NCBI GenBank assembly: GCA_038237475.1
Contig: JBBRYS010000010.1
Coordinates: 130,465 to 194,464 of the forward strand
Source of the DNA: Pyrinomonadales bacterium
GTDB lineage: Bacteria > Acidobacteriota > Blastocatellia > Pyrinomonadales > Pyrinomonadaceae
Length of the DNA stretch: 64,000 nucleotides
Direction of reading: 5' to 3'
Position numbers and translations under genes: made by a program. Of this stretch, positions 33,486 through 59,055 are shown in pieces; position 1 is the first letter of the stretch, and each line of letters opens with the position of its first letter. Under the pieces are notes generated by a model. The model was given only the letters and a program-made list of their open reading frames with translations, was not told the DNA's origin and ran no database searches.

Positions 33486-33516
33486 TGACATCCAGCCGCC
33501 GGCGCAGTTCAAACAA

Positions 33517-40226: not shown

Positions 40227-41197
40227 CAAAAGTGCAGACGTATCATCAGCCACATCACTAATACGTGGGCAGTCCATATCGTTAACGCAAACGGAACCTG
40301 GAACTTGATAACGCCATACTGATCGCGCATGTCCAGCAATGCCGTGGGCACGATATTAAAGTTCGCGGCCATCGGCGTCATTAGGGTGCCGGTCGAGCCC
40401 GCAGTCAAAGTCACAATCGCCACCATGGCCGGGTCGACGCCAAACGGTTGAATGATCAGGGGAACCAGCACACCCGCGGCGATCACCGGAAACGCAGCAA
40501 ACGAGTTACCCATAACCATTGTGAACAACGCCATACCCAGGCAGTTGGCAACGATCAGGAGGAAAAGATTCTGCCCAGGAATAGCCCGGTGAATGCCCTG
40601 GGCCATTAAATCGCCGATCTTACTGGCCGTGAAAATGACCCCGAGTGAGGCCAGCAAGGCGGGCAGAATGTTGACTGCACCCATCGCATCATTCAGACGC
40701 CTGCCTTCCAGGAGGGCTTCGCGCAAGGTTCCGCCGGTAATAATCAACCCCACCAGCACGGCGATAATGCCACTGAAGCCGAGACCAATCAGTGCGCCAT
40801 CGTTGGAGCTGAAACCCAGCCAGCGAAACACGAGGGCAAAGGAAAACGTAACGATCGGAATGGAAAGCACTAACAGAAATATCCTGTTGCCGATTGATGT
40901 TACCTTGGATCTGGCCTGCCCCGACTGCGTCACCTTTGCGGCCGCCGCGCTGCGACTTACACGGCCGGCCCCATCAATGCCGACCATTACTAAAACCAGC
41001 AAGCCTGCAATCGATGTCGGTAGAATGCTGCCGAAAACAAAAATGATTCCCAACACAAACCAAAAGAGCGCTGTACCGATGCGGTGCTCGTTACTGCGGT
41101 CTCGCAGGTTCACTCCAGCAAAAATGAACAGCAAGACCCCGGTCATCACGTAGACCGCATTTAGTGTGAAGATGGTTGAAGTGAGGCCTGTCATCAC
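40226..41197 (-). CDS. DUF979 family integral membrane protein
   Basis: A 323-aa polytopic membrane protein with a 4-bp overlap with the upstream DUF969-like gene. This is the classical DUF969/DUF979 gene pair. Confidence 0.65.
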
Positions 41198-41964
41198 CGC
41201 TCCTGAGCCCTCTCGTGCGCGGTTAATCGCTTTCGTTCCCTGACATCAAGCCACCAGAATTGCATTGCTGCAATGCCCACCGAGAGGGTGGTGATCGGGA
41301 TCGCGTATAGGACTAATTTCCAGACGCTGACCGTGTAGCCCAGTCCCTTCATCACACCATAGACGAGCAGGATCCCCGGCAACACCGGTGAAAGATTCTG
41401 ACCATAAAAATTTCCGTAGTTTTCACTCGCGGCATTCGCAGCTTTGATCTCTTCCACGACCTGTACCGGAAGAACATCGACAGTCCGGGCCCGCGCGGTC
41501 GCCTCTGCGGCGCCCAATGACATGGGAAACATCAAAGGCCTGACAAACGCCGGGTGTCCATTCAATCTGATCCCCAGGATTCCCATCAGCACCCGAAACA
41601 ACTGGAAGATAATAAGTAGCCTGCCTACTGATGCTGCCTTGATGCGACGAACGAAGCTGGCAGCCTGTTCCTGCAGTCCGTACCTTTCGGCCAATCCGAT
41701 CGCCGGCAGGGTCAGGATAAAAAGCGTCATCAAGCGATTTTCGACAAAAGCCCGGCCGAGCATATTGATGATGCCTTCCTGGCCGGTTTTGGTCAGATAG
41801 GGCAGGCCTTGAACCAGACCCTGGCTGGAAAGTAGTGGCAATCCCGCGAGCAAACCGGTAACGAGGCCGGCTGTCACAACGACCAGCGTGGTGCGCAATC
41901 GCAGAGCCAGGCCAACAACTACAATCGCTATGCCCGCGAGTTTGAATAGTTCAGGTATCTGCAA
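41194..41964 (-). CDS. DUF969 family integral membrane protein (start uncertain)
   Basis: Lies in ORF 41194..42189. The N-terminal 75 codons overlap the upstream secreted-protein gene and look non-coding. TTG at 41964 gives [41 protein letters not shown], like DUF969 N-termini. Confidence 0.55.
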
Positions 41965-42076
41965 ATTAAATTGGCGTGCGCGCCACGAAATTGACGCATC
42001 CCTGCGTACCGGATCTGCGAAAGAAATCTTAGTTATCCAGGCTTTGGTGCGCTTCGAGCTTTTACTATCAAACCAA

Positions 42077-42772
42077 CTAAAGACTGCGGCACATTTCCGG
42101 GCCCCAGGGCAGGGCGACGGCGCGCCGGTAGGACAATCCAATTTCCGCGAAGTTCCAGTCCTTGCGTTGCCAAATCGAACCGTCCGCATATTCGACTCGA
42201 TTCACCACAACCCTTTCCTGAGCTGCGTTGCTCGACTTGTTTGAGAGCGAGTCAACACTCACTACTTCGCTGGGACCAGAGACGCTAAAGGCCCGCACTT
42301 CTTTTGCCTTATCTGGTTTGATACTTACGCCACAAAGAAACTGCCGCCGGACAGTGTTGGCAGGATTGCTTGAGTCGATGAATTGATATTCCCAGAAGAT
42401 GATATCCACGACTCTGGCGCTCCTGTTCTGTAGCCTTGCCTGAAAAGAAAAACCATCAACGGGTTTACTTTGAGGCCGCCGCGATTCCTGCACGATCTTT
42501 TCAATCGCCGCGCTGCGCCCGTCAATCGTGTCTTCATTTGGATCTCGTGCCCCAGCCGGCAGATTAACCCTGGCGTTTCTCGGGTAATTCTTGTTTTCGG
42601 GAATCATGGCCCGCGCAGGAACGTTGTCGGGCACAGACTGATCATCGATGGCTTGACGACTCTTTTGGTACTTGAAGGCAATGACCTCCAGCGGGTTCCG
42701 CATCTCAGAGCCAGGAGTTTGAAGGGGAACACCAGACGATAGAAACAGCCACAAGATGAGTAGACCTTTCAT
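42077..42772 (-). CDS. hypothetical secreted protein
   Basis: The 231-aa ORF has the signal peptide [22 protein letters not shown] recognise no family. Confidence 0.6.
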
Positions 42773-42989
42773 ATCGATCTCCGCTTGACGTTTCTGATAA
42801 CCTCGTCACATGTAAGGAAGTAGTGTGCCTGTTATTCCAGTTAAGGTAACGATAATTAACCACGCTACCGCTGTCAATAAAAGTGGGGGAAGTATTAGCC
42901 TCGCTTACTGGAATTCGGTCAAGACCAACAGCGTTTTGGCCAGATTGCTCAGAAGCTCCTCTCTATAGTGGACCGTAGCCTTCGACCGA

Positions 42990-43611
42990 TTACTGGCCTG
43001 CGGTCGAATTTTCCTTGTGTGCCTTGATCTCAGCACTGACGCGGTCAAAACAGTCGGGACAGATCCCGTGACTAAACTCAACCTCAGTCCGATCGGAAAC
43101 ATAGGTATCGACTCTTTGCCAGTAATTCTGATCGTCGCGAATTTTTTTACAATAGGAACAGATCGGCAGCAGACCCTGCAGCTGTTTGACCTGGGAAAGT
43201 GCCTGTTCGAGTTCCTGAACGCGATCGGCAAGCACGCGCTGCAACTCAATCATCTGCACTCCGACCTCAACTCTGACTCGCAATTCCTCCCGATGGAAAG
43301 GCTTAGTCGGGTAGTGTTGGCGCCAGCCTGCAGCCCGCGCACTACATCGTCTTTAGTGCTCATGGCACTCAGCAAAATGACGTAGGGAGGAATGGCGAAA
43401 GACAGTCGCGCACTCTGCGACAAACTTCACAGCCGTCTAGTTCCGGCATCATGATATCCAGAATTGCCAGGGAGGGGGCGTCGGGCTCTCGCAAAACGTC
43501 CCACGCCAGTTGCGCGTTGGTGGCAACCAAAGCTTCGTGGCCCCAGCTGGCGAGCGATCGTTCCAGAATGCGGCAGGACACCGGATCGTCTTCGGCGATC
43601 AAAATTTTCAT
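42990..43611 (-). pseudogene. response regulator (REC + coiled coil + Cys4 C-terminal module) disrupted by two frameshifts
   Basis: Frame A (43611-43369) reads MKILIAEDDPVSCRILERSL...ILDIMMPELDGCEVCRRVR. Frame B continues PPYVILLSAMSTKDDVVRGLQAGAN. Frame C (to 42990) continues YPTKPFHREELRVRVEVG...LPICSYCKKIRDDQNYWQRVDTYVSDRTEVEFSHGICPDCF. The shifts lie near 43403-43408 and 43314-43317. Confidence 0.8.
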
Positions 43612-44050
43612 AGCCGTGACCCTCGACGTTCAGACTTGAGTGTCCTTTCGCTCATTTGATTAGCCGCCTTGATTTTGATGCTAATCAGCCGGCAGACGCA
43701 TGACGAAGTCCCCCTCGCGGCAGCGTGCGGCAACTAATGAACCGCCGGGCCGAAGGTATTCTTTGACAACACCGCTGAGACTCCAGTGTCGAAGTCGGCC
43801 TTCCTTCGAATATCACGGGGAGACTGTTTAAGCACCTGAAACATTTCCAAAATTCAAATCCAGCCTGGAAGGGCTTCTGCAAACGCAAAAGGTAGTTTCG
43901 AGGAAAACTCTTAAAGCGAACGAGACGGGACGGCACGAATATATGCTATTCCCAGGCAGGAACCAATTGCGGTTCACGCGGGAGTTTAGGAGCAAGAGGA
44001 AAACCCGGCTCAAGCCAGTACTCTGAACGCCTGTTAACAAACCAGGCAGA

Positions 44051-46309
44051 TCACTTCTCGAGGCCGGCCGGCATGTTGTCGTGCAGGAACCGTGTCAGGA
44101 GTTCGTAAAGGTGTCGCGACGTATTGGTTCCCGTGCTGATATCGTGGCGCCGGTTCGGATACTCCATCATCGTGAAGGGTTTGTTCGCCGCCACTAGCGC
44201 ATTGATCAGCTTTTCGGTGCTCTGGAAGTGAACGTTATCATCGCCGGAGCCATGCACCACCAACAGCTTGCCTCGCAAACCGTCGACGTAGGTAATCGGC
44301 GAGCCATTCTTATAGTCCTCGGCATTGTCCGTTGGTAAGCCCATGTAGCGCTCTTGATAGATCGTGTCATAGAGAGTTTGATCGCTCACCGGGGCCACCG
44401 ACATCCCTGCGCGGTAGATGTCCGGATGACGAAACATCTGGTTCAAAGTCATTGAGCCGCCACCGCTCCAACCCCAGATGGCAATTCTCGATGGATCCAC
44501 AAAAGGCCAGCCCTGAATCACTTTTGCGGCTGCCGCCTGCTCCCGTGAAGCGAGGCTGCCGATCTGACGATAAACAACTTTTCTCCATGCGCGCCCGCGC
44601 GGCGAGGGAGTACCGCGGTTGTCCACGCTGATTACGATGTAGCCCTGTTGCGCGAGCATCAGGTGCCAGAGTTCATTGTTTCCACCCCAGCGATCCAGAA
44701 CCGTTTGCGCTGCCGGTTCGCCATAGACATGGACCAGGACCGGATAACGTTTGGACGGATCAAAATCGGGTGGCTTGATCATCCAGCCATCGAGCTGAAT
44801 ACCATCGCCGATATCGACGCGGAAAAATTCGCTGGGTCCGCGCTTAATGTTCTTCACTTTTTCGAGCAATGCCGAGTTGGCGGCAAGCGGTCTAACCGAT
44901 GTGTGCTGCGGTAGCCGCACCAGGTCAGTTGCAGCGGGAGTCATGAACGTCGAGTAAGTATGAAATGCCAAACCACCGTGAGGTGAAATGCTGTAAGTGT
45001 GCGTCCCAGGCAAAGACTGTGGGCTCACTCGCTCGGCCGGACCTTTTCCGTCAAGCCGTCCACGGTAAAGATAACGCTGCGTGGGATTATCGGGTGAAGC
45101 GGTGTAATAGAACGAGCCGTCAGCCTCATCGATGTTGTCTACATTCGTGATATCAAAATTGCCAGGGGTGATCAGCCGCACACTTTTGCCGTCGCGGGAA
45201 ATGACGTAGAGATGGCGCCAACCATCGCGTTCGCTGATCCACGTAAAGCTCTTACCACCATCCAGCCATTGGAGATCGCTGACTCTCAGATCCACCCAGG
45301 CATCGTCCTTGTCGGTGAAGACGGTGCGCACTAGTCCGTTGCGCGCATCGGCCAGCATGAGCTCAACCGTGTCCTGCCGGCGGTTAAGGTGCTGCAGGAC
45401 GATCTCGGTCGAGTTGCCGGCCCAATCCATATCTGCGATGTAGTTGTTGCGCGGATCTCCCGGCACCGCTAGCCAGCGCACTTCTCCGCCTCCGGCGCTC
45501 ACGACTCCCACGCGCGCGGAAGAGTTTGTGGTTCCCACCTTCGGATACGGAATCGGTGTCACCTTCGGATAAAGAGAGTCGGTGTTGTTGATGAGATAAA
45601 ACTCGCCAACGCCGGTTGAATCGAGTTGCCAGAAAGCGATCGATTGGCTGTCCGGACTCCAGCGCCAGCCGTCACGTAAATCCAATTCTTCTTCGTAGAC
45701 CCAATCAAAGGTCCCATTGATCAAAACAGGCGAGCCGTTGCTCGTCAATTGGCGAATACCGCCAGTCGCGAGATCCTCCACATAGAGATTGTTGCTGCGC
45801 ACGTAACCGACGCGCCGGCCATCAGGCGAGAACTTCGCAAACATCAGCGTTGCCGGCTCCGCTTTGCCACCGAGTTTTTTCAGCCCCTTGCCGTCGAGAC
45901 CCGCAACCCAATAGTCACCCCTGGTGCGCTGGCGCCATACCTGCTGTGAGTTGGTAAAGATCAGCAGCTGCTTGCCATCCGCAGACCAGACGTAGTCATC
46001 AATCGGGAGAGCTGCGGTCGCACCTGCAGGCACCAGTGTCTTTGCTGCAACCAGGATGCTGCGCTGGCCGGAGTCGGCTTCATAGCGAATGATGTCCTGG
46101 CCACCTTTTACGTCCGCTGCAGGCTCAACAGTAGTGTACGCTCGCCCATCTTCCAACCAACGCGCCGGGCCAAATCTCGCCGCGTCGAAATCGCGATCGG
46201 TAAATATTCGCTTGAGTGTCAGGATGGATGGATCCGGTTGTTGCGCGAACAGTTGGCCGGTGCAGCAAGTCGCCAGTACTACCAGCAGCAATATACGAGA
46301 AATTTTCAT
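44051..46309 (-). CDS. S9B dipeptidyl-peptidase IV family serine peptidase
   Basis: Lies in ORF 44051..46405. ATG at 46309 gives the signal peptide MKISRILLLVVLATCCTGQLFAQ. It has a DPPIV_N-type propeller (WSADGKQLLIF, FDWVYEEEL), the catalytic WGWSGGGSM, and GSGDDNVHFQ. Confidence 0.9.
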   Translation of the reverse strand: MKISRILLLVVLATCCTGQLFAQQPDPSILTLKRIFTDRDFDAARFGPARWLEDGRAYTTVEPAADVKGGQDIIRYEADSGQRSILVAAKTLVPAGATAALPIDDYVWSADGKQLLIFTNSQQVWRQRTRGDYWVAGLDGKGLKKLGGKAEPATLMFAKFSPDGRRVGYVRSNNLYVEDLATGGIRQLTSNGSPVLINGTFDWVYEEELDLRDGWRWSPDSQSIAFWQLDSTGVGEFYLINNTDSLYPKVTPIPYPKVGTTNSSARVGVVSAGGGEVRWLAVPGDPRNNYIADMDWAGNSTEIVLQHLNRRQDTVELMLADARNGLVRTVFTDKDDAWVDLRVSDLQWLDGGKSFTWISERDGWRHLYVISRDGKSVRLITPGNFDITNVDNIDEADGSFYYTASPDNPTQRYLYRGRLDGKGPAERVSPQSLPGTHTYSISPHGGLAFHTYSTFMTPAATDLVRLPQHTSVRPLAANSALLEKVKNIKRGPSEFFRVDIGDGIQLDGWMIKPPDFDPSKRYPVLVHVYGEPAAQTVLDRWGGNNELWHLMLAQQGYIVISVDNRGTPSPRGRAWRKVVYRQIGSLASREQAAAAKVIQGWPFVDPSRIAIWGWSGGGSMTLNQMFRHPDIYRAGMSVAPVSDQTLYDTIYQERYMGLPTDNAEDYKNGSPITYVDGLRGKLLVVHGSGDDNVHFQSTEKLINALVAANKPFTMMEYPNRRHDISTGTNTSRHLYELLTRFLHDNMPAGLEK

Positions 46310-46331
46310 GGGTGACGGTTCCTTCATAGCT

Positions 46332-47432
46332 TTAAATGACAAAGACTGGTTTACCAAGAACTTCAAGACGTGGTTTGATTCCCAGGCCTGGCTCAGCGGA
46401 CGCAACCAGCCGTCCGTGCTTCCTTTGGGGCGCTCCGTCGGCGATGCTCACGGTCACGTAACTATTGAAATCCGTTGACGAGAAAAGTAGGTCGGGTCTC
46501 GTGCTGTGCGCCAGATGAGCGATCGCGGCTGTCACAATGTCACCGCCCCAGGTGTCTTCGATGGTCATCGCGATTCCCAATGAGACACAAAGGTCGCGAA
46601 TCTGCCGCGCCTTTGTCAGTCCCCCAACTTTGGAGATCTTCAAATTGATCACATCCATGGCTTGATCTCCGAAAGCGCGCACAACCATGTGCACGTCGTC
46701 GATCACTTCATCGAGCACGAATGGTCTTGAAGTGTGACGCCGCACGGCCAGGCATTCTTCGTAGCTCATGCAGGGTTGTTCGAGATAGACGTCAGTGTGC
46801 CGCACTGCAGCGGCGATGCGAATCGCCTGGTGCTGACTCCAACCGGTATTCGCATCCGCAATCAATACGTCTCCGGGCTCGAGTTCCGCCGCCGCCATTT
46901 TGATCCGGGCGATGTCGGTATCGGGTTCGCCACCGACCTTCAATTGAAACTTAGTGTAACCCTGCGCACGGTAAGTGCTGATGCTCGCGGCCATCGCTTC
47001 AGGCGTGTCCTGCGAAATCGCGCGATAGAGCGGGAAGTCTTCGCCATAGCGTCCGCCGAGTAACGTCGATATCGATTGGCCGCTTGCCTGACCGAGAATG
47101 TCCCAGCAGGCCACGTCGAGCGCGGACTTAACGTAGGGATGCCCGCGCATGGCCTGGTCCATGCGCTGATTAATCAAGCCAAGTTGCGTTGGATCACAAC
47201 CGAGCAGATGGGGCGCCAGCTCCGCCATACCCGCCCGCGCACCGGCAGCGTAGGCCGGCAGGTAAGCAGCACCGAGCGGGCAGATCTCTCCATAGCCGGT
47301 GATTCCGGAATCTGTCTTCACGGCCACGACTGTCGAATCGAAGACCGACACGCTGTTGCCGCCAGACCATTTGTAGCTGCCTTCATGTAACGGCAGTTCG
47401 ACACGATATCCAGCGATTTCCACTATGCGCAT
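46332..47432 (-). CDS. enolase-superfamily enzyme (mandelate racemase / muconate lactonizing enzyme family)
   Basis: Lies in ORF 46332..47516. ATG at 47432 gives [15 protein letters not shown]. Metal-ligand regions are [15 protein letters not shown] and VLDEVI, with KFQLKVGG and [11 protein letters not shown]. Confidence 0.85.
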
Positions 47433-47582
47433 GAAACAGACTCCCGGGAGAGAAAACGGTTTGCGACCAACTATGTCAGTCGTACGAACGAGCTTGCCTG
47501 GGGAGGCTTCGCTCAATCGCTATTCATGAATGAGACCGATCTTAAACAAGACAGGGAATCGCCTTCTCAGTCTCGCGCCTGC

Positions 47583-48644
47583 TTAGATCAAACTTACGAT
47601 AATGCCGCTCGCCACGGCAATTACCCAGATCGACGCCGCCACCACACCTGCGACTCGCCAGTTAGTCGATCTCATGATCGTCAGCAGCGAAGGAAGGTTT
47701 ATAGCTGGTCCGGCGATGAGCAGAGCCAAAGCAGCGCCGATCGGGGCGCCTGCGCCTATCAAAACAAACGCCAGGGGGATCTCGAAAAACGTCGGGAGCG
47801 CCAGCGGAATGGCAAAGGTAGCGACGACTATGACTGCCAACAACTTCGCATTTGGCGATGCGAAAGCGTTGACGGGCAGCCACTGTGCAATGACCATCGA
47901 GACCAGGACACCGATGATTATCACCGGAACTATTCGCAGAGCTACCTGCGCGCACGCCCTCACGAAGCGCAGCAACTGTGAGCTCACCGACAACTTTTTC
48001 GGCGCATCGGGGAGTTCACATGGAAGTCGCGCATTGCCGAAGATCTTGTCAGCAATCATCCCCGTGAACACTACCGCGGCAATGCTGGCGGCAACGCGGG
48101 TTCCAGCAACCCTGTGATCGAAAAGCATAAAAGTGAGAATCAAAGCAGCCGGATTGAGCGCGGGCGCGGCCAACATCAAACCGAGTGATGGGCCAAGTCG
48201 AGCAGAACGTTCATATACGCCTTTGAAGATCGGAGCGACACAACATGAACAGAGCATCAACGGTGCACCGGCAGCTCCGCCAAGTAACTGGCCTCTGAAT
48301 GAGCCTTTGCCCAATGTGCGAGCCAACCAGTTCGGAGACACAAAGGTGGTCACGGCGCCGCTGATCAGAATGCCAAAAATCAGCGCCGGCAAAATTACCT
48401 GGAAGTAGTTCAGCGTACGCCCCAGCGTATTGGCTTCCGTATGGCCGACCAGTGGAATCACGTTCGCTCGCGGAGTCAGCGTTCCGGTTGCCGACACCTT
48501 GTTAATGACCACAAGCGCAGCCGAACTCTTGTAGGCGATTAATGCACCAACGATCAGCAGCACGGGCAAAGCAAAAAAAACAACCTGTTGAATTGCCGTA
48601 AACGTTGTGCCCTCTTTTTTATGAGTGGTTTGTTCTGTAATCAT
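47583..48644 (-). CDS. ArsP_1/YraQ-type permease with vicinal cysteine motif
   Basis: A 353-aa polytopic membrane protein. The motif GAPLMLCSCCVAPIF is typical of the predicted-permease family that includes the organoarsenical exporter ArsP. Confidence 0.7.
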   Translation of the reverse strand: MITEQTTHKKEGTTFTAIQQVVFFALPVLLIVGALIAYKSSAALVVINKVSATGTLTPRANVIPLVGHTEANTLGRTLNYFQVILPALIFGILISGAVTTFVSPNWLARTLGKGSFRGQLLGGAAGAPLMLCSCCVAPIFKGVYERSARLGPSLGLMLAAPALNPAALILTFMLFDHRVAGTRVAASIAAVVFTGMIADKIFGNARLPCELPDAPKKLSVSSQLLRFVRACAQVALRIVPVIIIGVLVSMVIAQWLPVNAFASPNAKLLAVIVVATFAIPLALPTFFEIPLAFVLIGAGAPIGAALALLIAGPAINLPSLLTIMRSTNWRVAGVVAASIWVIAVASGIIVSLI

Positions 48645-48688
48645 GGGCCAGAGATCCTCGTTTAATTTGCCAGACCGGCGCTGAGACT

Positions 48689-49690
48689 TCAGGCTCGTAG
48701 TTCGTCGATTAAATCCGCCAGGGCTCTCTGTTCTCTAGCGGGCTTGAAGAGAAAAGCCAGATTTTTAACCCATCTTCTCAGTTCCGTCAGATATTGTGCG
48801 GAGGTCTCAGCGCGTGTCAACAGTCGCACAAGTTCTTTTGTATCGCCAACCTCAAAATAGCCCGGATAGTCTGTACCCAGAATGCCAACATTTCCGTCTA
48901 TGCGCGAGGCCAGCACGGGCAGCGAAGCCACAATCGCCTCCGACAAAACGTTGGCCCCGCCCTCTAAGCGAGATGAAATCACACAGAGGCGGCTCTTCTC
49001 CATGATACGGCGGACCTGAGATCGCGATTTTTCTCCCAGCCATTCGTAACGTTGGTTGGCAAGCATTTCCCGGCTCGCCCGGGCTGCCATTGCTTCACTC
49101 ATCGCACCGCCTACCTGCAGGATCCGGATGCTTGACTTCGCAGGAAGTATTCGTGCAGCCATCGCAGTGCGAAATGGATCTTTCACAGCACGCATATGTC
49201 CGATGACGCATACTGGAAAGCTAACTATTTGTTTTTTGAATTCATGCCTGCTTACCTTTGCTCCCGGTGGCTTGACTCCGGCCACGCGGACGTTTCGCGT
49301 GTCTTCAACCGACTGATAAATTACGCGGGCTTTGGTTCGCAGATCCCGTCGCAGGGTTTCTATTGCCTTTGGTTGCAGGAGGATGATTCTTGATGCCAGC
49401 TCGAGTGCTAATTGAGCTCGAGTATCGGTTTGCAGATCACGATAAAGATCCGTGCCGGTAAGAGCGACGATGATGGGAGCATCAGGTTGTTGGCGGCGAA
49501 ACCTAATGATCGACATCTGGCTGCGCCGTGCGTGCAAAGCAATCAACAAATCGCAGGGCTCACCCTCGTACGTTTGCAGAATAGTGACTCGATGGCCGAG
49601 TTGCTTCAAAAGCCCTGCCCAGCGCAGCGCTGTTATGCGGTTCCCGTAAAGTGAGTCCGGAGGGGCCGGAGTGACTATGCCAATCCTCAT
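48689..49690 (-). CDS. GT-B glycosyltransferase, SenB-like (candidate selenosugar/thiosugar synthase)
   Basis: The 333-aa ORF begins MRIGIVTPAPPDSLYGNRITALRWAGLLKQLGHRV and has a C-terminal SSRLEGGANVLSEAI (the EX7E-like region of GT4-type enzymes). It lies 6 bp downstream of the EgtB/SenA-like gene. The SenB assignment rests on context and remembered family features, not on a search. Confidence 0.5.
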   Translation of the reverse strand: MRIGIVTPAPPDSLYGNRITALRWAGLLKQLGHRVTILQTYEGEPCDLLIALHARRSQMSIIRFRRQQPDAPIIVALTGTDLYRDLQTDTRAQLALELASRIILLQPKAIETLRRDLRTKARVIYQSVEDTRNVRVAGVKPPGAKVSRHEFKKQIVSFPVCVIGHMRAVKDPFRTAMAARILPAKSSIRILQVGGAMSEAMAARASREMLANQRYEWLGEKSRSQVRRIMEKSRLCVISSRLEGGANVLSEAIVASLPVLASRIDGNVGILGTDYPGYFEVGDTKELVRLLTRAETSAQYLTELRRWVKNLAFLFKPAREQRALADLIDELRA

Positions 49691-49696
49691 TCTTCC

Positions 49697-51037
49697 TTAC
49701 TTTGAGGCGCAGGTGCGAAATCCCGCCCACACGTCGCGCCGATGCGGCTGATAGAAGTTTCGGTAAGTATTGTTGATAAGGCGCGAACGAGTTGCCCAAC
49801 ACCCGCCACGAAGAACCTTGTGATCGCCAAACCAGGGCTCGGAATATTCTTTGTAAGGTCCCGCGGTAAAGCCCGGATAAGCATTAAAGTCGCTGGCTGT
49901 CCATTCCCAGACATTGCCGATCATCTGCCGGCACCCCGACGCGCTATCACTTGCAGGCAGGGCGTCAACGGGGATGCAGCCCAATGCGCGCGAGTCCAGA
50001 TTAGCGCGGCCTGAGCCCAGCGCTTCATCGCCCCAGGGAAATGTTCGCTTGTGGGATGTCGTATTTCCATCCGGTTCTATACTTGCCGCCAGCTCCCACT
50101 CTGCTTCCGTTGGCAGACGACGGCCCGCCCAGCGGCAGTACGCATCGGCCTCAAACCAGTTGACGTGTATGACGGGCAGTCGCTCATCGAGACTAACCCA
50201 TTCATCAAAATTGCGGCGCAGCCAGCGGCCGTTTCCTTCCTTGAACCAATACACCGGATGTTCGGCGCGCACACTAGTGCGCCACTGCCAGCCTTCTGCC
50301 GTCCACAGTTCCCTTCTCTGATAGCCGTGGTCGTTTACAAAATCGCTAAATTCAAGATTGCTCACGGCGGTCCTGGAAATCAAAAAAGGCGCTATTTCAA
50401 CCTCATGTGCAAGTTGCTCATTGTCGAAGACAAAGCGATTGCAGGAAGGGCTGCCGAGAATAAATTTGCCGCCGCCGAATTCTGCATCGCCGGGTACAAA
50501 CAAGTTGGCTTGAGTGCGATCAGCGTCATGCGGCGATCTCGCCTCGTTAACGATCTGCTTTGCATCACTGTCGCTTGCCGGTGATGGATAGCTCAGAGTC
50601 TGACGTGTGTAAGTGATCGCTTCGTCGTGCATCTGCTCGTGTAACAGTACAAGGTTCAGAAAATAGTCCGCATCATATCCCTGAGCAACTGTCATATCCG
50701 GTTTCGCTGAGTTCGCCTGCTCGATCACTCGCTCCAGAACTGTTTGCATATAAGCAAGAGTTTCTGCTCGCTCAAGTAATGGCAGATCCCAGCGAGTGTC
50801 GTGGCCGACACGCGCCGAATCGTAGTGATCGTCGCCATTCTTAAGAATCGGCGACTGTTTACCGAAGTGCCGGAGGATCCAGAACTCCTGAAACCAGGCG
50901 ACGTGTCCAATTTCCCAGCGGAGCGGATTCACGATTGGTAAGCGCGGGCCCAGCCACTGCTCGTCACTCAAGTCGCCAACCAACGCGAGTGTGCGCGAGC
51001 GAGTCTCCCGCAAGGCGCTAACCAATTCCGTGTTCAT
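49697..51037 (-). CDS. EgtB/SenA-family sulfoxide (or selenoxide) synthase: DinB_2 + FGE-sulfatase domains
   Basis: The N-terminal DinB_2 domain has iron-ligand motifs WEIGHVAWFQEFW and LLHEQMHDEAITY. The C-terminal FGE-like domain has RRLPTEAEWE, GNVWEWT and VLRGGCWAT. Confidence 0.85.
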   Translation of the reverse strand: MNTELVSALRETRSRTLALVGDLSDEQWLGPRLPIVNPLRWEIGHVAWFQEFWILRHFGKQSPILKNGDDHYDSARVGHDTRWDLPLLERAETLAYMQTVLERVIEQANSAKPDMTVAQGYDADYFLNLVLLHEQMHDEAITYTRQTLSYPSPASDSDAKQIVNEARSPHDADRTQANLFVPGDAEFGGGKFILGSPSCNRFVFDNEQLAHEVEIAPFLISRTAVSNLEFSDFVNDHGYQRRELWTAEGWQWRTSVRAEHPVYWFKEGNGRWLRRNFDEWVSLDERLPVIHVNWFEADAYCRWAGRRLPTEAEWELAASIEPDGNTTSHKRTFPWGDEALGSGRANLDSRALGCIPVDALPASDSASGCRQMIGNVWEWTASDFNAYPGFTAGPYKEYSEPWFGDHKVLRGGCWATRSRLINNTYRNFYQPHRRDVWAGFRTCASK

Positions 51038-51088
51038 AGCTCTTATCTGAGCGGTCGACAGAAATATTCGGAGAACTTTTTGACCTGC

Positions 51089-52480
51089 CTACTTGCCATC
51101 CATCGAAATAAACAGATTGTTTAAAGATTCGGCCAGGGTTGGGTGCGCGAATATGCCATCCTTCAGGGCCGTGTAAGGCAAGCGACCCATTATCGCTATC
51201 TCAAACATGCTCATCAACTCACCGGCTTCAATGCCCAGGACAGCGCAGCCCAGTATTAGTTTCGTTTCGGCGTCAACCACAGCTTTCATGAAACCGCGAG
51301 TCTCGCCCATTTCAATTGCCCGTGCGACCCGGCTCATTGGCAGTTTCGCCACGCGAATGTCCAGGCCCTGATTCCTGGCTTCTGTTTCGGTGATCCCGAT
51401 GCGGCCGAGTTGCGGATCCAGGAAGACAGTGTATGGAACCAGCCGATCCGTTGTGGTCGCCTGACCCTGTTCAAGGATGTTCGTGCGCAGGATACGAAAG
51501 TCATCGTAGGAAATGTGCGTAAAAGCAGGGCCGCCATTAACATCACCCAACGCATAGATTCCTTCAACATTCGTCTCCAACCGATCGTTTACCCTGACAA
51601 AGCGACGCGCGTCTGTTTCGACTCCAGCCGACTTCAGGTTGAGCCGATCCGTATTCGGTTCACGACCGGCCGCAACCAGCAGGTGAGAACCTTCTACAAT
51701 CCTCTCGCCTCCACTTGTTTTGGCCGTCATGCTTACTTTGGTATTGCTGCCCGTGATGCTCACAGCCTCAGAATTCAGCAGGACGGTGATTCCATCCTCC
51801 TCCAGTATCTTGGCTACTTCGCCGGCAACATCCGGGTCTTCGCGATTCAGCAGCTGCTCCCCCCGCTGAACAATAGTTACTTCGCTACCGAAACGTCTGA
51901 ACATCTGACCAAACTCCAGACCGATGTAGCCGCCACCTAACACAAGCAAATGCTCCGGTAGCGTTTCCAGTTCCATTATCGAAGTCGAATCCAAAGCCGG
52001 AATGCCTTCCAAACCGGGAATCGATGGCTGCGCGGGACGAGCACCGGTGTTGAGGAAGATTCTGTCAGCCGTAAGCAAACGCGTGCCGCCTTCATTCAGG
52101 ACCACCTCAAGTGAAGTTTGACCGGCGAACGTTGCCTCACCTCGCAACAGCTCAAGACCCGCAGTCTTCTCGATGTTCCTGAGTCCACCGTCGCGAAAGC
52201 TTTCGACGATCTCTTGCTTGCGCCGGCGGACCGCTGACATGCTGACCGTCACCGGTCCACAGTTCACACCGTAATCAGCACTGCGACGCGCGAGATACGC
52301 CACGCGAGCGCTGGCCACCATTGTTTTCGTCGGCGTGCAGCCGACGTTGACGCAGGACCCGCCAATATTCTTTCGCTCGATGATGGCTGTTTTCAATCCA
52401 GCTTTGGCGAGCGCGACGGAAAGCGGCGTACCTCCCTGCCCTGAGCCAATCACAATAGCATCGTATGTTTCAACTTCCAT
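51089..52480 (-). CDS. class I pyridine nucleotide-disulfide oxidoreductase (flavoprotein disulfide reductase, MerA-like core without metal-binding extensions)
   Basis: Lies in ORF 51089..52513. ATG at 52480 gives [17 protein letters not shown] (FAD GxGxxG). It has the redox-active [13 protein letters not shown], the NAD motif [11 protein letters not shown], and the dimerisation-domain HPTLAE. Confidence 0.85.
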
Positions 52481-52726
52481 GACAAATGTTTCTCCGATTC
52501 GCACCCAAAGCAAACCGCCTCGGGTGCATTAGTCGCAGCCTGCCCCAATGAATTTTCTCATGCCGAGTCCTTTTGAAACTCTTTTGCCTGACCCGCCGCG
52601 CCGCTCGCACTGCAGACTACGCTGCAGGCCACACGTCAACTTCAACAAAAAAAAGGTAAAGAGACTTTGTTTACTTCTTCTCCTCCGCCCGTACCGGGCG
52701 TCTTAGCGAACAGCAGGAAGCTGAAC

Positions 52727-52911
52727 CTATTGCGGGCATTCAGTATTGCTGTGCGTCACTGTGGCGCTAAAACGCTGTTGGTACTCGGTTGAGGTCACAA
52801 ACGAACAGACCATTGCGTGCTGTTTGGCGACATCCCGCAAGCGCGCCGTTGACCTGCACCAGCCAAAACAGAAAATAATTCACGTCCGCATTACGACACG
52901 CAGGTCGACAG
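52727..52911 (-). pseudogene. decayed, frameshifted copy of the DUF4214 C-terminal tail
   Basis: Minus-strand translation gives ...DVNYFLFWLVQVNGA, then after a 1-nt frameshift VAKQHAMVCSFVTSTEYQQRFSATVTHSNTECPQ*. This is clearly homologous to the last roughly 60 aa of the 53062..55554 gene. Confidence 0.7.
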
Positions 52912-53061: not shown

Positions 53062-55554
53062 TTACTGACACTCGACATTCGTGTGCGTTACCAATGAACT
53101 GAACCGCTGTTGATATTCTGCAGATGTGATGAATGAACATACCATCGCATGCTGCTTGGGTACGTCTCGCAATGGCGCGCTGTTGACCTGGCCCAACCAA
53201 AACAGGAATCCACCGATATCCGGATCCCGACGCAAGTAACCGAAGTATTGTGTTGTCACAAACGCGCGATTGTATTCTGCGTCAATGAACGGACGGTTGT
53301 TGATTGGATTTGTTTGCGTGTTATCGTCGGCGAGGCGATAGATTACGGCACCGCGACCGGCGTTTCCGCCTCCGCTTTGGTTGTATAGATCGATCAGCGC
53401 CTGGCGCTGCGAACCCAGGTCCACTGGCAGCCCAGTCTGATCCTTGATGTCATTCTTGATCGTCGCCAACAGCGCATCGACGTATGCTGGTCCATCAAGA
53501 CCTGACGCATAACTTGAAATGAACGCCGCCCTCTGGACGAAAGCAGTTGACAGATCGAGCTGCGCCTGTGCGAGACTCGCACCGCCAACCACTCGGGCAC
53601 GGTCCGGCGTAAACGCTGCGTAACTCACCAACTTGTTCGCTTCTGCCGGGTTTGAGTTGTCGGGATTCGGAAACGGTTGATTGTTACCAAACGCCGCTCG
53701 GTAGAGCCGGTAGACATAAGAACCAGTCTGTTGATACTCGAGTTCGTAGAAGAATGCGTTCGACACATCGATTCGTTTGGTGCGAATGCAAACCTGATCG
53801 TTTCCGCATTGCGTGATCAGGCTGGTCCAAAAATCAAACCCACCCTGATCAGGTTCGCGATTCAGAAAATCATGATAGTGCTGGCGAACAAAATCCGTTA
53901 CATCGTCGATTGGGTTTGTAGGCGGTTCACTGGCGTCGTCATCAATCCTTAGGTTGGCAGTTGCTGGTGTACCCAGGGCACCAAATCCAGTCGTATTCGA
54001 AAGAGCCAGCATCACTCTTTCCGGGCCTTCGACGTAAGCGTCCTGAGTGATCAGGACTCTGAACGTCTTTGAATCCTCACCGGCGGCGAACCTCAGCGTT
54101 CCGAACGCTTCGGTGAAATCACATTTAGGTGAGGCCATGCCGGTAACCGTCGAGCAACGAGAGCCGCTATCCCCTCCAGTTGCAAAGTCAACGGTTACCG
54201 GTAACGATTTATCTCCTAAGCGCACTACCGTAATGGTAGCGAAGCTCGAACTCTCAGTCGTCGTAAAGTTTGCTGAACTGAACTGTAGAAAACCGCCAAC
54301 CGGATTGACATTGATAGTGAAGGTCTGTGGAGGCGACGTGTCATGCCCGCCATTGGCAGTACCGCCATTGTCCTGCAGCACAACGGTGATTGTTGCCGAG
54401 CCACCTCCATTCGCGGCGGGTGCATAGCTTAAAGCCCCTGTCGAAGAAATAGCCGGAGCCGTCGCGAAGAGGCTCGGGTAGGTGTTGTTGGTGATCACGA
54501 AGCTTAATGTTTGATTTGCTTCGTTCGCGGGGCCGGGCGACAAGTTATTGGCCCAATTATTCACAATTTGCGTCCCCGCGTTGTTGTTCACTGTTTGGTC
54601 CAAACCTTTCGTGAACATTGGAGAATCATTGACGGGGTTTATGGTCACAACAAACGTATCGGTCATGCTCTGCCTGTTCGTGCCGTTGACCGTCACACTA
54701 ATCGTTGCAGTGCCAAACTGGTCAGCAGCCGGATTGATCGTCACAGTCCGAGTTGAGCTAGAGCCAGTCACTACCAGGTTCGCAGCGTTATTTGGCACGA
54801 GTGCTGTGTTTGAGGAGGTGGCGGTTATTGATGTGATTGACCCAGAGCCACCGACATTGAACGAGAACTGAAGCTGCGTATCCTCATTGGTAGCCTTGTC
54901 AGTGATGTCTTCGACCGACACCTGCGCCTCGAAGGCACCTATATCAACTGTCGCAACTGTATCAGCATCGGGACCATCAACCTGTCGCGCGAAGCCCGTG
55001 CCTCGCTGATCCGTCGTCAAACTGAGCGGAAAGCCAGTGACTGAATTGTCACCTGCATCGAGAGCCGGACTTCCAGCGAGGAGTGCTTGAGTTTGCGTCA
55101 GGCCACCGTTGTTAGTGAGTGGTGCCAGCCTGGGGTCGACGTTAGTTTTATTGTGGGTGGTCGTACCAGTGAAAGTCGCGCCAGTCGTGTTTCCAATCAG
55201 ATTGTAGTCTTGCGAGTTGAAGGCACCGAGTAAGTCTGGGCCGCTACCTCCGCCACTGACCGAGTTGTTCGCGACAATTGTGTTCTCCAGGTTGACGGTG
55301 CTGCTGTTGTTGGCGATGCCTCCGCCGCTGCCGCCGCTGGTATTGACGGCGTTATTTGAGATCGTGCTATTCGTCAATGTGAGTGTGCCGGCGCCGGTCA
55401 CGAAGATGCCGCCGGCAACGTTAGCATCGCCCGTCACGCTATTGCCGCTCACCGTGCTGTTTATCAAGTTGAGAAGCGCGCCTCTGTGGTCGATGCCACC
55501 TCCTGTGTAAGCATTGTTTCCGCTGACCGTGCTGTTGGTAAGTGTCATCGCCAT
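53062..55554 (-). CDS. 5'-truncated surface protein: choice-of-anchor-Q/beta-helix repeats + cadherin/VCBS-like repeats + Calx-beta + DUF4214 tail
   Basis: ORF 53062..56001 is open. Only from about M150 (55554) does it read as real protein: MAMTLTNSTVSGNNAYTGGGI..., NSTISNNAV..., DPRLAPLTNNGGLTQTQALLAGSPALDAG, VNDSPMF, Calx-beta FAAGEDSKTFRVLITQD, and DUF4214 FVRQHYHDFLNREPDQGGFDFW. It has no signal peptide, and the first roughly 150 codons are antisense of the neighbouring fragment. Confidence 0.7.
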   Translation of the reverse strand: MAMTLTNSTVSGNNAYTGGGIDHRGALLNLINSTVSGNSVTGDANVAGGIFVTGAGTLTLTNSTISNNAVNTSGGSGGGIANNSSTVNLENTIVANNSVSGGGSGPDLLGAFNSQDYNLIGNTTGATFTGTTTHNKTNVDPRLAPLTNNGGLTQTQALLAGSPALDAGDNSVTGFPLSLTTDQRGTGFARQVDGPDADTVATVDIGAFEAQVSVEDITDKATNEDTQLQFSFNVGGSGSITSITATSSNTALVPNNAANLVVTGSSSTRTVTINPAADQFGTATISVTVNGTNRQSMTDTFVVTINPVNDSPMFTKGLDQTVNNNAGTQIVNNWANNLSPGPANEANQTLSFVITNNTYPSLFATAPAISSTGALSYAPAANGGGSATITVVLQDNGGTANGGHDTSPPQTFTINVNPVGGFLQFSSANFTTTESSSFATITVVRLGDKSLPVTVDFATGGDSGSRCSTVTGMASPKCDFTEAFGTLRFAAGEDSKTFRVLITQDAYVEGPERVMLALSNTTGFGALGTPATANLRIDDDASEPPTNPIDDVTDFVRQHYHDFLNREPDQGGFDFWTSLITQCGNDQVCIRTKRIDVSNAFFYELEYQQTGSYVYRLYRAAFGNNQPFPNPDNSNPAEANKLVSYAAFTPDRARVVGGASLAQAQLDLSTAFVQRAAFISSYASGLDGPAYVDALLATIKNDIKDQTGLPVDLGSQRQALIDLYNQSGGGNAGRGAVIYRLADDNTQTNPINNRPFIDAEYNRAFVTTQYFGYLRRDPDIGGFLFWLGQVNSAPLRDVPKQHAMVCSFITSAEYQQRFSSLVTHTNVECQ

Positions 55555-55557
55555 TGA

Positions 55558-56088
55558 CGAGTTCAGGCCTTTGCGGGGGATCGCGCGCGCGTAGTAGGCG
55601 GTGCCAATTTGGCGCAGGCCCAGTTGGAATTGGCCCAGGCGTTTGTGCAGCGGCCAGAGTTTCTGGCGAAGTACCCGGCAAATTTGGATGGCCCGGGTTT
55701 TGTCGATGCCATCGTGGCGACGATCTTGAATGATATCGGGCCCGATCTGACGGCGCAGCGCCAGGGCTTGATAAATCTCTTCAACTCGGGCGGTCGTGGC
55801 GCCGTGCTGTATCGCCTGGCCGATGACAACGTGCAAACCAACCCAATCAACAATCGCCCGTTCATCGACGCTGAGTACAACCGGGCGTTTGTAGCCACAC
55901 AGTACTTTGGCTATTTGCGGCGAGACCCGGATATGGGCGGCTTTCTGTTCTGGCTGGGCCAGGTCAATAGCGCGCCTTTGCGGGACGTGCCGAAACAACA
56001 CGCGATGGTTTGCTCCTTCATTACTTCAGCTGAATACCAACGGCGATTCAGCTCGGTTGTCACTCATACAAATTTGGAGTGTCAGTAA
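55558..56088 (+). pseudogene. orphan 3' fragment of a paralogous DUF4214-tail gene
   Basis: Plus-strand frame is open from 55558: RVQAFAGDRARVVGGANLAQAQLELAQAFVQRPEF...YRLADDNVQTNPINNRPFIDAEYNRAFVATQYFGYLRRDPDMGGFLFWLGQVNSAPLRDVPKQHAMVCSFITSAEYQRRFSSVVTHTNLECQ*. This is co-linear with the last roughly 175 aa of the 53062..55554 product, but there is no upstream body or start context. Confidence 0.65.
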
Positions 56089-57393: not shown

Positions 57394-58098
57394 TCAGCGT
57401 GTCAGCACCAGTAACGAATACCCGCCCAGCACGCGAACCACCAGGTGCTGATTGAATGTGGACAACACTCGTCGGGGCCAGCTTGCCAGTCTGGCTTTGA
57501 CGCTGCGCGGATGCGCAATCGCTCCATCGGTGTAGCACCAATCAACCACTTCATATCCAGCGCCCTGCAAAGTCGCCAGCGCCGTCTCCTTCGTAAAGTA
57601 ATGCAGATGTCCGGCTTGCTCTCGCTCGCGCATGATTGGCCCACTTCGCCATACCCACTGTACCGACAGGTCCAACGGAACATGGAAAATCTTGAACGTA
57701 GCTTTGGCCCGCAGGGCGCGCAGAAAACCAATGTAGTCTTCCACGTGTTCAAAGACATCCAGGCAGAGCAGGAGATCGAATGCCGGTTCATCACCCGCGA
57801 TCAAATCCCGGCAATGAAAGTGCAAGCGATCATTTTCTCTCTCCTGGCAAAGCGCAAACGCCTGCGGCGAAATTTCGTAACCAAAAAACTGCGTATCCGC
57901 AGGCAGACTAAACTGCAGCTGTTTAAGGATCTCACCGGCGCCGCAGCCAACTTCACAGACCGTCCGCGGAGCGAGACCGTGTTTCTCGATCAACCTGAGC
58001 ACCTGACCGGCTTTCCAGGCCGAGTCCTCGACATGGTACGTCGGATTCTTTTCGACATACTCGCCGGTCTGATAGATGCTCCCGTTTGTCTCAGTCAT
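57394..58098 (-). CDS. class I SAM-dependent methyltransferase
   Basis: The 234-aa ORF has motif I VCEVGCGAGEIL and motif II/post-I FDLLLCLDVFEHV. Confidence 0.85.
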   Translation of the reverse strand: MTETNGSIYQTGEYVEKNPTYHVEDSAWKAGQVLRLIEKHGLAPRTVCEVGCGAGEILKQLQFSLPADTQFFGYEISPQAFALCQERENDRLHFHCRDLIAGDEPAFDLLLCLDVFEHVEDYIGFLRALRAKATFKIFHVPLDLSVQWVWRSGPIMREREQAGHLHYFTKETALATLQGAGYEVVDWCYTDGAIAHPRSVKARLASWPRRVLSTFNQHLVVRVLGGYSLLVLTR

Positions 58099-58209: not shown

Positions 58210-59055
58210 CTATTTTGTCGCGACGACCTTGGCACCCAACATCAAGCGCCATGGTAACCCACGCGCCAAAGTTCTTCCGAGCGTGACCGGCAACCCCCCG
58301 AGAAGCCATTCACCGGCAGTCACTATTGCCAGGGGTACGGTCAGATGAAACCCGCCCCCGCCAACGAGCACCTTGCATTTTCGAAAGCCGGCGCGGCGAA
58401 ATAATTCTGTCAGTTCGCCTACGGTATACTCGCGCAAGTGAAATCCAGTCGCGACCTCATCGAAATAGCGCGAGACATCGTGCGGTCCGCTCAGCCGATT
58501 CGGCGTGATACAAAGATAGACTCCGCCTGGCGCCAGCGCCTGGTAGATTCCTGCCAACTGCTCAACGGCATCATCCGGGTGTAGATGCTCCAGCAACTGA
58601 TCGCTATAGGCAAGTTGGACACTGCCCGCCGGCACTGGAATGCTGCAACCGTCCGAGATTGCAAACTCCAGATTGTCAGGAAGCCTGACGCCGCCAGCAA
58701 CTTCGTTTGAAACATCGACTGCATATACCTTTCGCACTCGGTGGGCCACTGCCACTGCCAGCGCGCAGTCCCCTGGTCCAACCTCGAGATAGACTACGTC
58801 CGGGTGCAGATAGCCGCTGATCAACTCTAAGCGGGCCGCAACTTCCTTTTGTCGCAGGACGGCATTTGCCTTCTGCGTCAGCTGAGGGTGATCACTAACG
58901 CGGCTGAACAGTTCATCGTAAACAACTGTATACAAGTGCCGTCTTTCGTCCTTCGACGCCGAGCGCAGACGAGCTGCCAACTCCTTTTCAATGCGATAGT
59001 GTTCCTTAACCCGCTCGAAGGATCGTGTCTCGGTATGGGGAATTCTGACAGGCAT
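58210..59055 (-). CDS. class I SAM-dependent methyltransferase
   Basis: The 281-aa ORF has motif I VYLEVGPGDCALAV, LAYSDQLLEHL and LAPGGVYLCITPN. It lies 7 bp downstream of the GT2 gene. Confidence 0.85.
   Translation of the reverse strand: MPVRIPHTETRSFERVKEHYRIEKELAARLRSASKDERRHLYTVVYDELFSRVSDHPQLTQKANAVLRQKEVAARLELISGYLHPDVVYLEVGPGDCALAVAVAHRVRKVYAVDVSNEVAGGVRLPDNLEFAISDGCSIPVPAGSVQLAYSDQLLEHLHPDDAVEQLAGIYQALAPGGVYLCITPNRLSGPHDVSRYFDEVATGFHLREYTVGELTELFRRAGFRKCKVLVGGGGFHLTVPLAIVTAGEWLLGGLPVTLGRTLARGLPWRLMLGAKVVATK

Follow-up and report, generated by a model that had tools for sequence, protein, structure and literature searches.

What is made by an operon in which an EgtB-like enzyme is followed directly by a small glycosyltransferase, with a flavoprotein reductase before the pair and a permease after it? 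Such an operon occupies positions 47583 to 52480, minus strand, of the 64,000-nucleotide stretch of contig JBBRYS010000010.1 (the window) that we analysed from a Pyrinomonadales bacterium. A first interpretation from the letters alone, here the sequence-only reading, had asked whether the four genes form a senC-less selenoneine-type cluster, either a variant equipped for recycling and transport or a sulfur-sugar analogue of the pathway. Selenoneine biosynthesis was described in 2022 and has been treated as a three-enzyme pathway. We favor, at a probability of roughly 0.6, the reading that this is a selenoneine operon of a Pyrinomonadaceae-like acidobacterium, furnished with a reductase that keeps selenium in the reduced state and a permease for thiophilic selenium. 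The senA-senB core is known biology, and the NCBI annotation pipeline would name both genes. What is new here is a senC-unlinked core joined to two conserved accessory genes, of which the reductase is the more interesting lead.

The second gene of the operon (49697..51037, minus strand) encodes a 446-aa protein with the Pfam domains DinB_2 and FGE-sulfatase, and both profile scores and active-site residues identify it as SenA, the selenoneine synthase, a non-haem iron selenoxide synthase (NHISS). It scores 487.5 bits against NCBIfam NF041186, above the cutoff of 420, and only 338.3 bits against the EgtB model TIGR03440, below the cutoff of 360. Its composite motif (N37 E42 H45 / H79 R82 / H133 M136 H137 / Y395 Y398 / N427 F428 Y429 R433) is an exact match to the published SenA active-site motif xNEH--HRHxHYYN(F/Y)(F/Y)R (PMC11030361), and is the commonest type among the NHISS enzymes compared (43 of 93). 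The closest homologue (P0002) is 76% identical and has the reductase gene immediately upstream; the best match among GTDB representative genomes reaches 72% identity, and close public homologues carry the NCBI name 'selenoneine synthase SenA [Pyrinomonadaceae bacterium]'.

Two related enzymes had to be weighed against this assignment. EgtB (types I, II and IV) shares the DinB_2 plus FGE-sulfatase fold, the three-histidine iron site and the catalytic tyrosine. We rejected it on the TIGR03440 score and on the active site, where the window protein has N-E-H and H-R in place of the S-D-H or S-H-H and R-R of EgtB (S/D in EgtB-I and S/H in EgtB-II at the N/E positions); moreover, no egtD adjoins the gene. 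OvsA, from the ovoselenol cluster, is likewise a selenosugar-dependent NHISS and is the best solved-structure match (302 bits; PDB 8u41, 8ux5), the top entry being the OvsA-YNF mutant, which was engineered to mimic SenA. The OvsA reading was also rejected, as the window protein carries the hercynine-type residues Y398, N427 and F428 where OvsA has its histidine-binding M/Q/A (...HYMQAYR). Against the SenA of Variovorax paradoxus the score is only 245 bits. That alignment falls into two pieces because a segment of about 50 residues (322-373 in the window protein), also retained in OvsA and EgtB, is absent from the Variovorax enzyme.

The third gene (48689..49690, minus strand) encodes a 333-aa Glycos_transf_1 protein that the sequence-only reading took for a SenB-like glycosyltransferase, and SenB, the selenosugar synthase (a Se-glycosyltransferase), it proved to be. 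It passes TIGR04348 (378.2 bits, cutoff 300) and matches the V. paradoxus SenB structures 8jjn/8fbx with 181 bits. Structural papers on SenB define a catalytic lysine (K158), a selenophosphate pocket (N20/H58/R61/T83/T85/R155), a sugar triad (N20/T23/E231) and E239. All 10 of these key residues are kept in the window protein, as K170 (K158), N17 (N20), H53 (H58), R56 (R61), T78 (T83), T80 (T85), R167 (R155), T20 (T23), E243 (E231) and E251 (E239). The EGGAHV motif reads EGGANV, and the uracil/ribose contacts R22, H211 and T214 are replaced by I, R and V. The window thus shares with the canonical senABC clusters of V. paradoxus and Amycolatopsis (Kayrouz & Seyedsayamdost 2022) adjacent senA and senB genes, equal domain architectures, the SenA motif and the catalytic and pocket residues of SenB; we regard the identity of this core as practically settled.

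The same residues bear on the sulfur-sugar analogue, a selenium-independent route in which the SenB-like enzyme would make a thiosugar and the SenA-like enzyme would turn it into ergothioneine or a hercynyl-thiosugar. SenA weakly accepts thioglucose in vitro, and the 64 kb hold no selD, as such a route would allow. However, SenB has kept its selenophosphate pocket and catalytic lysine in full, SenA carries the very motif of selenium-using enzymes, and orthologous clusters include selD or a putative selenate importer. With a thiosugar, moreover, the sulfoxide accumulates and ergothioneine is not formed, and SenC makes no thiophosphate (10.1101/2022.04.13.486033). We consider a sulfur-sugar pathway extremely improbable, and this half of the original proposal is disfavored.

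The missing senC calls for a different answer. Locally, its absence was correctly observed: when all other open reading frames (ORFs) of the window with 150 aa or more were scanned with Pfam, neither an AIRS/SelD domain nor an EgtD-type methyltransferase turned up, which agrees with the statement that senC and egtD are not in the window. As a distinctive trait of this cluster, the absence did not stand. From GTDB representative genomes we collected 80 loci that encode relatives of SenA and clustered their ORFs; 30 of these loci, here termed well flanked, combine a SenA-motif gene and SenB with 8 kb or more of sequence on either side. SelD is encoded in 11 of these, EgtD in 10 and neither in 16, so that 19 of the 30 senA-senB loci have no selD within about 10 kb. 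Among Acidobacteriota, none of the loci L001-L005, L011, L014, L031, L162, L163 and L165-L168 has selD within the 7-10 kb covered. The lack of a locally linked senC is the norm in the acidobacterial lineage; such loci have not been widely noted because selD was a search requirement for the 827 clusters of the original survey. A search with an acidobacterial SelD found SelDs of Acidobacteriota, including Blastocatellia, and none on a contig matched in size to a SenA-bearing contig. The window thus differs from the canonical senABC cluster in having no senC/selD within 64 kb, as well as in its low-identity SenA and in two conserved operon genes that lie outside the described cluster.

Where SelD is encoded in SenA loci, it is either free-standing or fused to a TIGR03169 oxidoreductase; we found the fusion in 11 proteobacterial sen loci and a partial copy in a twelfth. 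In L089, the reductase-linked SelD is a selenoprotein in its own right, encoded with an in-frame TGA (selenocysteine) at CAG-U-AAK. Other arrangements around senA were seen as well. SenA-motif proteins are encoded beside egtD and an ABC transporter in L010, L015, L019 and L016; senB was not detected in the flanks of the first three, and L016 has a match to the senB hidden Markov model. The L010 protein shows the motif variant ...YYTYYR, which also occurs in the proteobacterial loci with the oxidoreductase::SelD fusion. In three loci (L001:9111-10001, L085:2537-3382, L167:3013-3912), the gene directly 5' of senA or of the reductase gene encodes a UbiE/ArsM-like S-adenosylmethionine (SAM)-dependent methyltransferase of some 296 aa, with 62% identity between L001 and L167. 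This enzyme could methylate selenium or provide another way to hercynine. The window does not have it, and the methyltransferases that the window does encode (57394-58098 and 58210-59055) are unrelated to it. Two acidobacterial loci have a gene for a 70-aa single-domain rhodanese after senB (L162:9496-9708, L163:9497-9709), which may serve as a selenium or sulfur carrier.

Do the two remaining genes belong with this core? The four minus-strand ORFs were recovered as first described, separated by 51, 6 and 44 bp, and co-transcription is inferred. The order reductase-senA-senB-permease recurs in three independent metagenome contigs (L166, L167 and L168) at 65-80% protein identity; to the L166 proteins the window reductase, SenA, SenB and permease are 79%, 71%, 68% and 80% identical. 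The arrangement is therefore not a matter of chance. Both accessory genes are conserved, clade-specifically linked partners of senA-senB, which is what the proposed recycling- and transport-equipped variant called for. A literature search returned no description of a sen- or egt-linked reductase or of an ArsP-type selenium permease, in keeping with the original remark that the four-gene composition was not known to be characterised.

The permease gene (47583..48644, minus strand; 353 aa) encodes a member of the ArsP_1/YraQ (UPF0718) family, as had been recognized, with 119.4 bits against PF03773 (gathering threshold 32.3) and the motif LCSCCVAPIF. Orthologues 74-80% identical follow senB directly in L166, L167 and L168, and at least 9 further orthologues lie on contigs shared with SenA orthologues, judged by identical contig sizes. 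More distant homologues stand directly 5' of senA (L013, 46% identity) and between senA and selD (L066, 28%). The C-x-C-C residues C132-S-C134-C135 are invariant in 122 homologues, including these two sen-linked proteins. The C-S-C element is the hallmark of the exporter group of ArsP, SO_0444 and SaoE (10.1101/2022.07.06.499078), and with this group (the organo-arsenical exporter family of TCDB) the window permease shares the PF03773 fold and C-S-C in a transmembrane segment. It differs in scoring about 85 bits against cutoffs of 300-325 (SaoE, 84.9 against 325; SO_0444, 84.7 against 300), in an extra third cysteine (C-S-C-C) and in its setting in a selenoneine operon. From these linkages, a functional connection of the permease to the selenoneine pathway appears reasonably probable.

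The reductase gene comes first in the operon (51089..52480, minus strand). Its product has 463 aa from the ATG at 52480, or 474 aa from an alternative TTG at 52513, the start chosen by NCBI. The protein is a class I pyridine-nucleotide disulfide oxidoreductase by its Pfam domains (Pyr_redox_2 and Pyr_redox_dim), its CxxxxC redox motif (C-V-N-V-G-C) and a C-terminal His-Glu dyad (H-P-T-L-A-E). Pfam found no HMA/NmerA domain and the sequence has no C-terminal Cys pair; together with a TIGR02053 score of 369.9 bits (cutoff 454), this upholds the earlier verdict that it is a flavoprotein disulfide reductase and not MerA. It also falls below every other NCBIfam cutoff (PRK06370.1-4, 545.8 against 629; RclA, 435 against 740; Har/MerA, 381 against 650), and the curated cutoffs together with the domain content rule out assignment as MerA, RclA, Har or as mycothione, glutathione or lipoamide reductase. 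RclA, Har and MerA are nevertheless its nearest characterised relatives, and the best PDB match is an RclA-type protein (6kgy, 344 bits). It shares with them the fold, the CxxxxC pair, FAD, NAD(P)H and dimerisation domains, the His-Glu dyad and, as a class, the reduction of small electrophiles at the Cys pair. It differs in reaching only 40-60% of their curated cutoffs, in lacking NmerA and the C-terminal Cys pair, and in being linked in genomes to sen, selD and egt genes instead of rcl or mer systems. After beta-2 of the NAD(P) fold, RclA has Glu where the window reductase has Arg (Q-R; Q/H-R throughout its clade), which suggests NADPH as the cofactor, by analogy with MerA and glutathione reductase.

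To follow the linkage of this reductase we scanned metagenome contigs with the window protein and annotated 80 loci whose reductases are 61-78% identical to it. The four closest (75-78%) all have senA as the very next gene, and those on contigs that extend further have senB after it. Directly 5' of senA in L082-L085, L166 and L167, and also beside P0002, are orthologues with 75-79% identity, and the series reductase-senA-senB is found in L082-L085, in L003 and beside P0002. One of these loci (L082) begins with a putative selenate ABC importer (TIGR04553, 268 bits, cutoff 250), whose permease gene overlaps the reductase start, and continues with reductase, senA and senB. Two others read selD - reductase - type II egtB - senA - senB (L086 and L089), and three read selD - reductase (L087, L119 and L141). 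Distant homologues (44-47% identity) adjoin senA-senB in metagenome-assembled genomes (MAGs) of Myxococcota, deltaproteobacteria and other Acidobacteriota, with differing gene orders. The one constant partner that the reductase has across the linked loci is an NHISS enzyme (SenA or EgtB) and not selD.

Several of these loci deserve mention in their own right. A cluster of selD, a class I reductase and a type II EgtB recurs in L109:8879-12816, L111:679-6026 and L130:6054-10251, where senB is not found within 10 kb, and in L086:9211-15494 and L089:8552-15592, where senA-senB follow. The EgtB of this cluster has the motif SHH(K/R)RHQHFYNFFE, and we know of no described pathway that ties a cysteine-type EgtB to a selenophosphate synthetase. 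In a Pyrinomonadaceae MAG (L003:7027-8483), two overlapping ORFs together make up the reductase 5' of senA; the break reflects either a frameshift introduced by faulty assembly or a pseudogene. An apparent MFS::reductase fusion in L166 seems to be two in-frame genes joined by a low-quality linker of about 100 aa, and was not used as evidence.

An active-site residue accompanies the linkage. The redox motif has its canonical form, C-x-N-[V/Y/L/T]-G-C, in the clade linked to sen, selD or egtB, and reads C-x-N-E-G-C in unlinked relatives (61-66% identity). Reductases without the Glu are linked within 3 kb in 20 cases and not in 5, whereas those with it are linked in 2 cases and not that closely in 55 (5 of these at 3-10 kb); neither set of counts is phylogenetically independent. 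A neighbor-joining tree rooted on RclA places the window reductase in a clade of 14 members; 13 of them adjoin selD, senA and/or type II EgtB, and L088, the remaining one, has less than 600 bp of flank. The grouping of the window protein with L082-L085 was recovered in 60 of 60 bootstrap replicates. From these comparisons we consider it very probable that the reductase is a functional part of the selenoneine pathway.

These data also bear on the possibility that the accessory genes are general defenses against oxidants or metals. The reductase would then act on HOSCN (hypothiocyanous acid) or Cu(II) in the manner of RclA/Har, the permease would export Cu/Zn or organo-metalloids like SO_0444, and both would be tied to selenoneine synthesis by a common stress regulon and would leave the compounds of the pathway untouched. 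Such a role would fit the characterised proteins nearest to the reductase (RclA, Har and MerA) and to the permease (SaoE and SO_0444), and in this lineage senA-senB often has heavy-metal efflux or copper genes within a few kb (RND/CzcB/OEP, CDF, CopZ, YHS, PCYCGC; in L162, L163, L165, L167, L168 and L003). Yet neither protein comes near the curated cutoffs of those families, and RND systems are so abundant in Acidobacteriota that their proximity may be chance. The reductase linkage to sen, selD and egtB is, moreover, clade-specific; it goes along with an active-site residue and reappears in different phyla under differing gene orders. We judge a stress function of this kind improbable. The window itself has an RND system (30460-36633) about 11 kb from the operon, which could reflect a role of selenoneine in metal stress or could be coincidental.

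What, then, would the reductase act on? In the pathway that we propose, SenB would join selenophosphate and a UDP-sugar to give a 1-seleno-sugar, which SenA would couple oxidatively to C2 of hercynine; the resulting selenoxide would undergo spontaneous elimination to a selenenic acid, to be reduced to selenoneine. The selenophosphate synthetase (senC/selD) and the hercynine source would be encoded elsewhere, as in most relatives. The reductase would use NADPH and its Cys-Cys/FAD center to keep pathway selenium reduced, its likely substrates being the selenenic acid or diselenide of selenoneine and possibly the selenosugar diselenide. The permease would move a thiophilic selenium species across the membrane, whether exported selenoneine, a selenium by-product or imported selenium. 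The published pathway leaves room for such a reductase. No enzyme in it reduces the selenenic acid to the selenol, a step ascribed to non-enzymatic reduction or disproportionation and achieved in vitro with dithiothreitol (DTT), and the selenosugar dimerises to, and is isolated as, the diselenide (10.1101/2022.04.13.486033). EgtE of ergothioneine synthesis also releases a sulfenic acid (PMC4493562), and RclA and Har are HOSCN reductases (PMC9335216, PMC9483559); their reduction of a sulfenic-type oxidant at a Cys pair would parallel the role proposed here. We lean to the product or intermediate side, that is, oxidised selenoneine or selenosugar species, because the NHISS enzyme is the constant partner and because of these unassigned reductions and precedents, and we would put the odds for it at about even.

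The competing assignment has both gene products act before the core enzymes, as a selenium-acquisition module: the permease would import selenium, as a Cys-bound selenotrisulfide or similar. The flavoprotein would reduce this selenium, or else selenite, Se(0) or selenodithiols, to selenide, from which an unlinked SelD would feed SenB. It draws on the loci in which the reductase lies immediately 3' of selD with overlapping or nearly abutting ORFs (L086, L087, L089, L109, L111, L119, L130 and L141), on the overlap of the reductase start with the importer gene in L082, and on L166, where the reductase follows an MFS gene. An ArsP-type permease in the window lineage would take the accessory-transporter role of that ABC importer. 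The TIGR03169 oxidoreductase::SelD fusions (L039 and about 10 others) offer a further precedent, in that a flavoprotein reductase is a recurring partner physically tied to selenophosphate synthesis inside sen clusters; that oxidoreductase, however, belongs to an NDH-2/SQR-like subfamily and not to class I, forms the N-terminal part of the fusion and is absent from the window. Against acquisition stand the window and L082-L085, L166, L167 and P0002, with no selD within 7-10 kb and yet a reductase that stays attached to senA; related reductases that adjoin egtD or egtB with no selenium involved (L110, L120 and L134); and the export function of characterised ArsP-family proteins. We regard an acquisition module as rather unlikely, if clearly less so than the stress genes.

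Several observations weigh against a selenoneine operon with dedicated accessory genes. The absence of SelD and EgtD from the window, given above, is one. Bootstrap support for the 14-member reductase clade is only 30 of 60 (50%), and most family members at 61-66% identity are not linked to any sen or egt gene. The gene directly before the reductase is often selD or a transporter gene (L082, L086, L089, L109, L111, L130 and L141), an order that fits selenide supply equally well. Characterised ArsP-family members are metal(loid) exporters, and C-S-C is family-wide and not specific to selenium (10.1101/2022.07.06.499078); a 70%-identical permease occurs with no sen genes nearby (L169). Finally, the reductase is present in only 4 of the 30 well-flanked senA-senB loci and the permease in only 2 of 69 SenA-motif loci, so neither is essential to the pathway.

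Besides the tight gaps between the genes, plausible ribosome-binding sites speak for the operon. They precede the reductase ATG at 52480 (GGAG), senB (AGGAAG, overlapping the senA stop codon) and the permease (GAGG). A scan of the operon for consensus promoters and terminators gave counts equal to shuffled expectation. The non-coding stretch of about 250 bp 5' of the reductase gene (52481..52735, minus strand) is presumed to hold the operon promoter or regulatory region; an Rfam search in and near the operon, this stretch included, gave zero matches. The stretch lies between the reductase ATG and a truncated 48-aa remnant (52736-52879) of a DUF4214 C-terminal module (...FITSAEYQQRFS...THTNVECQ), which has four copies in the window, the others at 53065-53310 (minus strand), 55840-56085 (plus strand) and 36730-36948 (minus strand). 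One of these, 94% identical and on the opposite strand, overlaps the long ORF 53062-56001 at its 5' end, pointing to a local duplication or rearrangement and to an over-extended call of that ORF. On the 3' side, a cis-3-hydroxy-L-proline dehydratase gene (46332-47435; NF043002, 620 bits) starts 147 bp after the permease. It belongs to a probable hydroxyproline and peptide catabolism block on the same strand (39189-47435), with a DPP-IV family S9 peptidase (44051-46405) and DUF969, DUF979 and DUF2891 genes (39189-42189). The dehydratase and DPP-IV genes were excluded from the module, as they are not conserved beside the permease in L166-L168.

It is tempting to go further and speculate that the reductase is the founding member of a subfamily for 2-seleno/thio-imidazole metabolism and supplies the missing last enzymatic step of selenoneine biosynthesis (and, in some lineages, of ergothioneine biosynthesis), the NADPH-dependent reduction of an imidazole selenenic or sulfenic acid or diselenide, and that in the permease bacteria have a transporter dedicated to selenoneine or its selenium precursor, the first of its kind. 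We hold this extended proposal only tentatively; if true, such imidazole compounds would be a new substrate class for the enzyme family. More broadly, a selD linked to the senA-senB pair is the exception in soil Acidobacteriota and many other phyla, and surveys that require a co-localised selD undercount potential selenoneine producers. The permease is a candidate for the transport of selenium or selenoneine. A conserved, pathway-linked reductase would supply either the final reduction step or selenide, and it could both improve heterologous selenoneine production and give the flavoprotein disulfide reductases a new physiological substrate.

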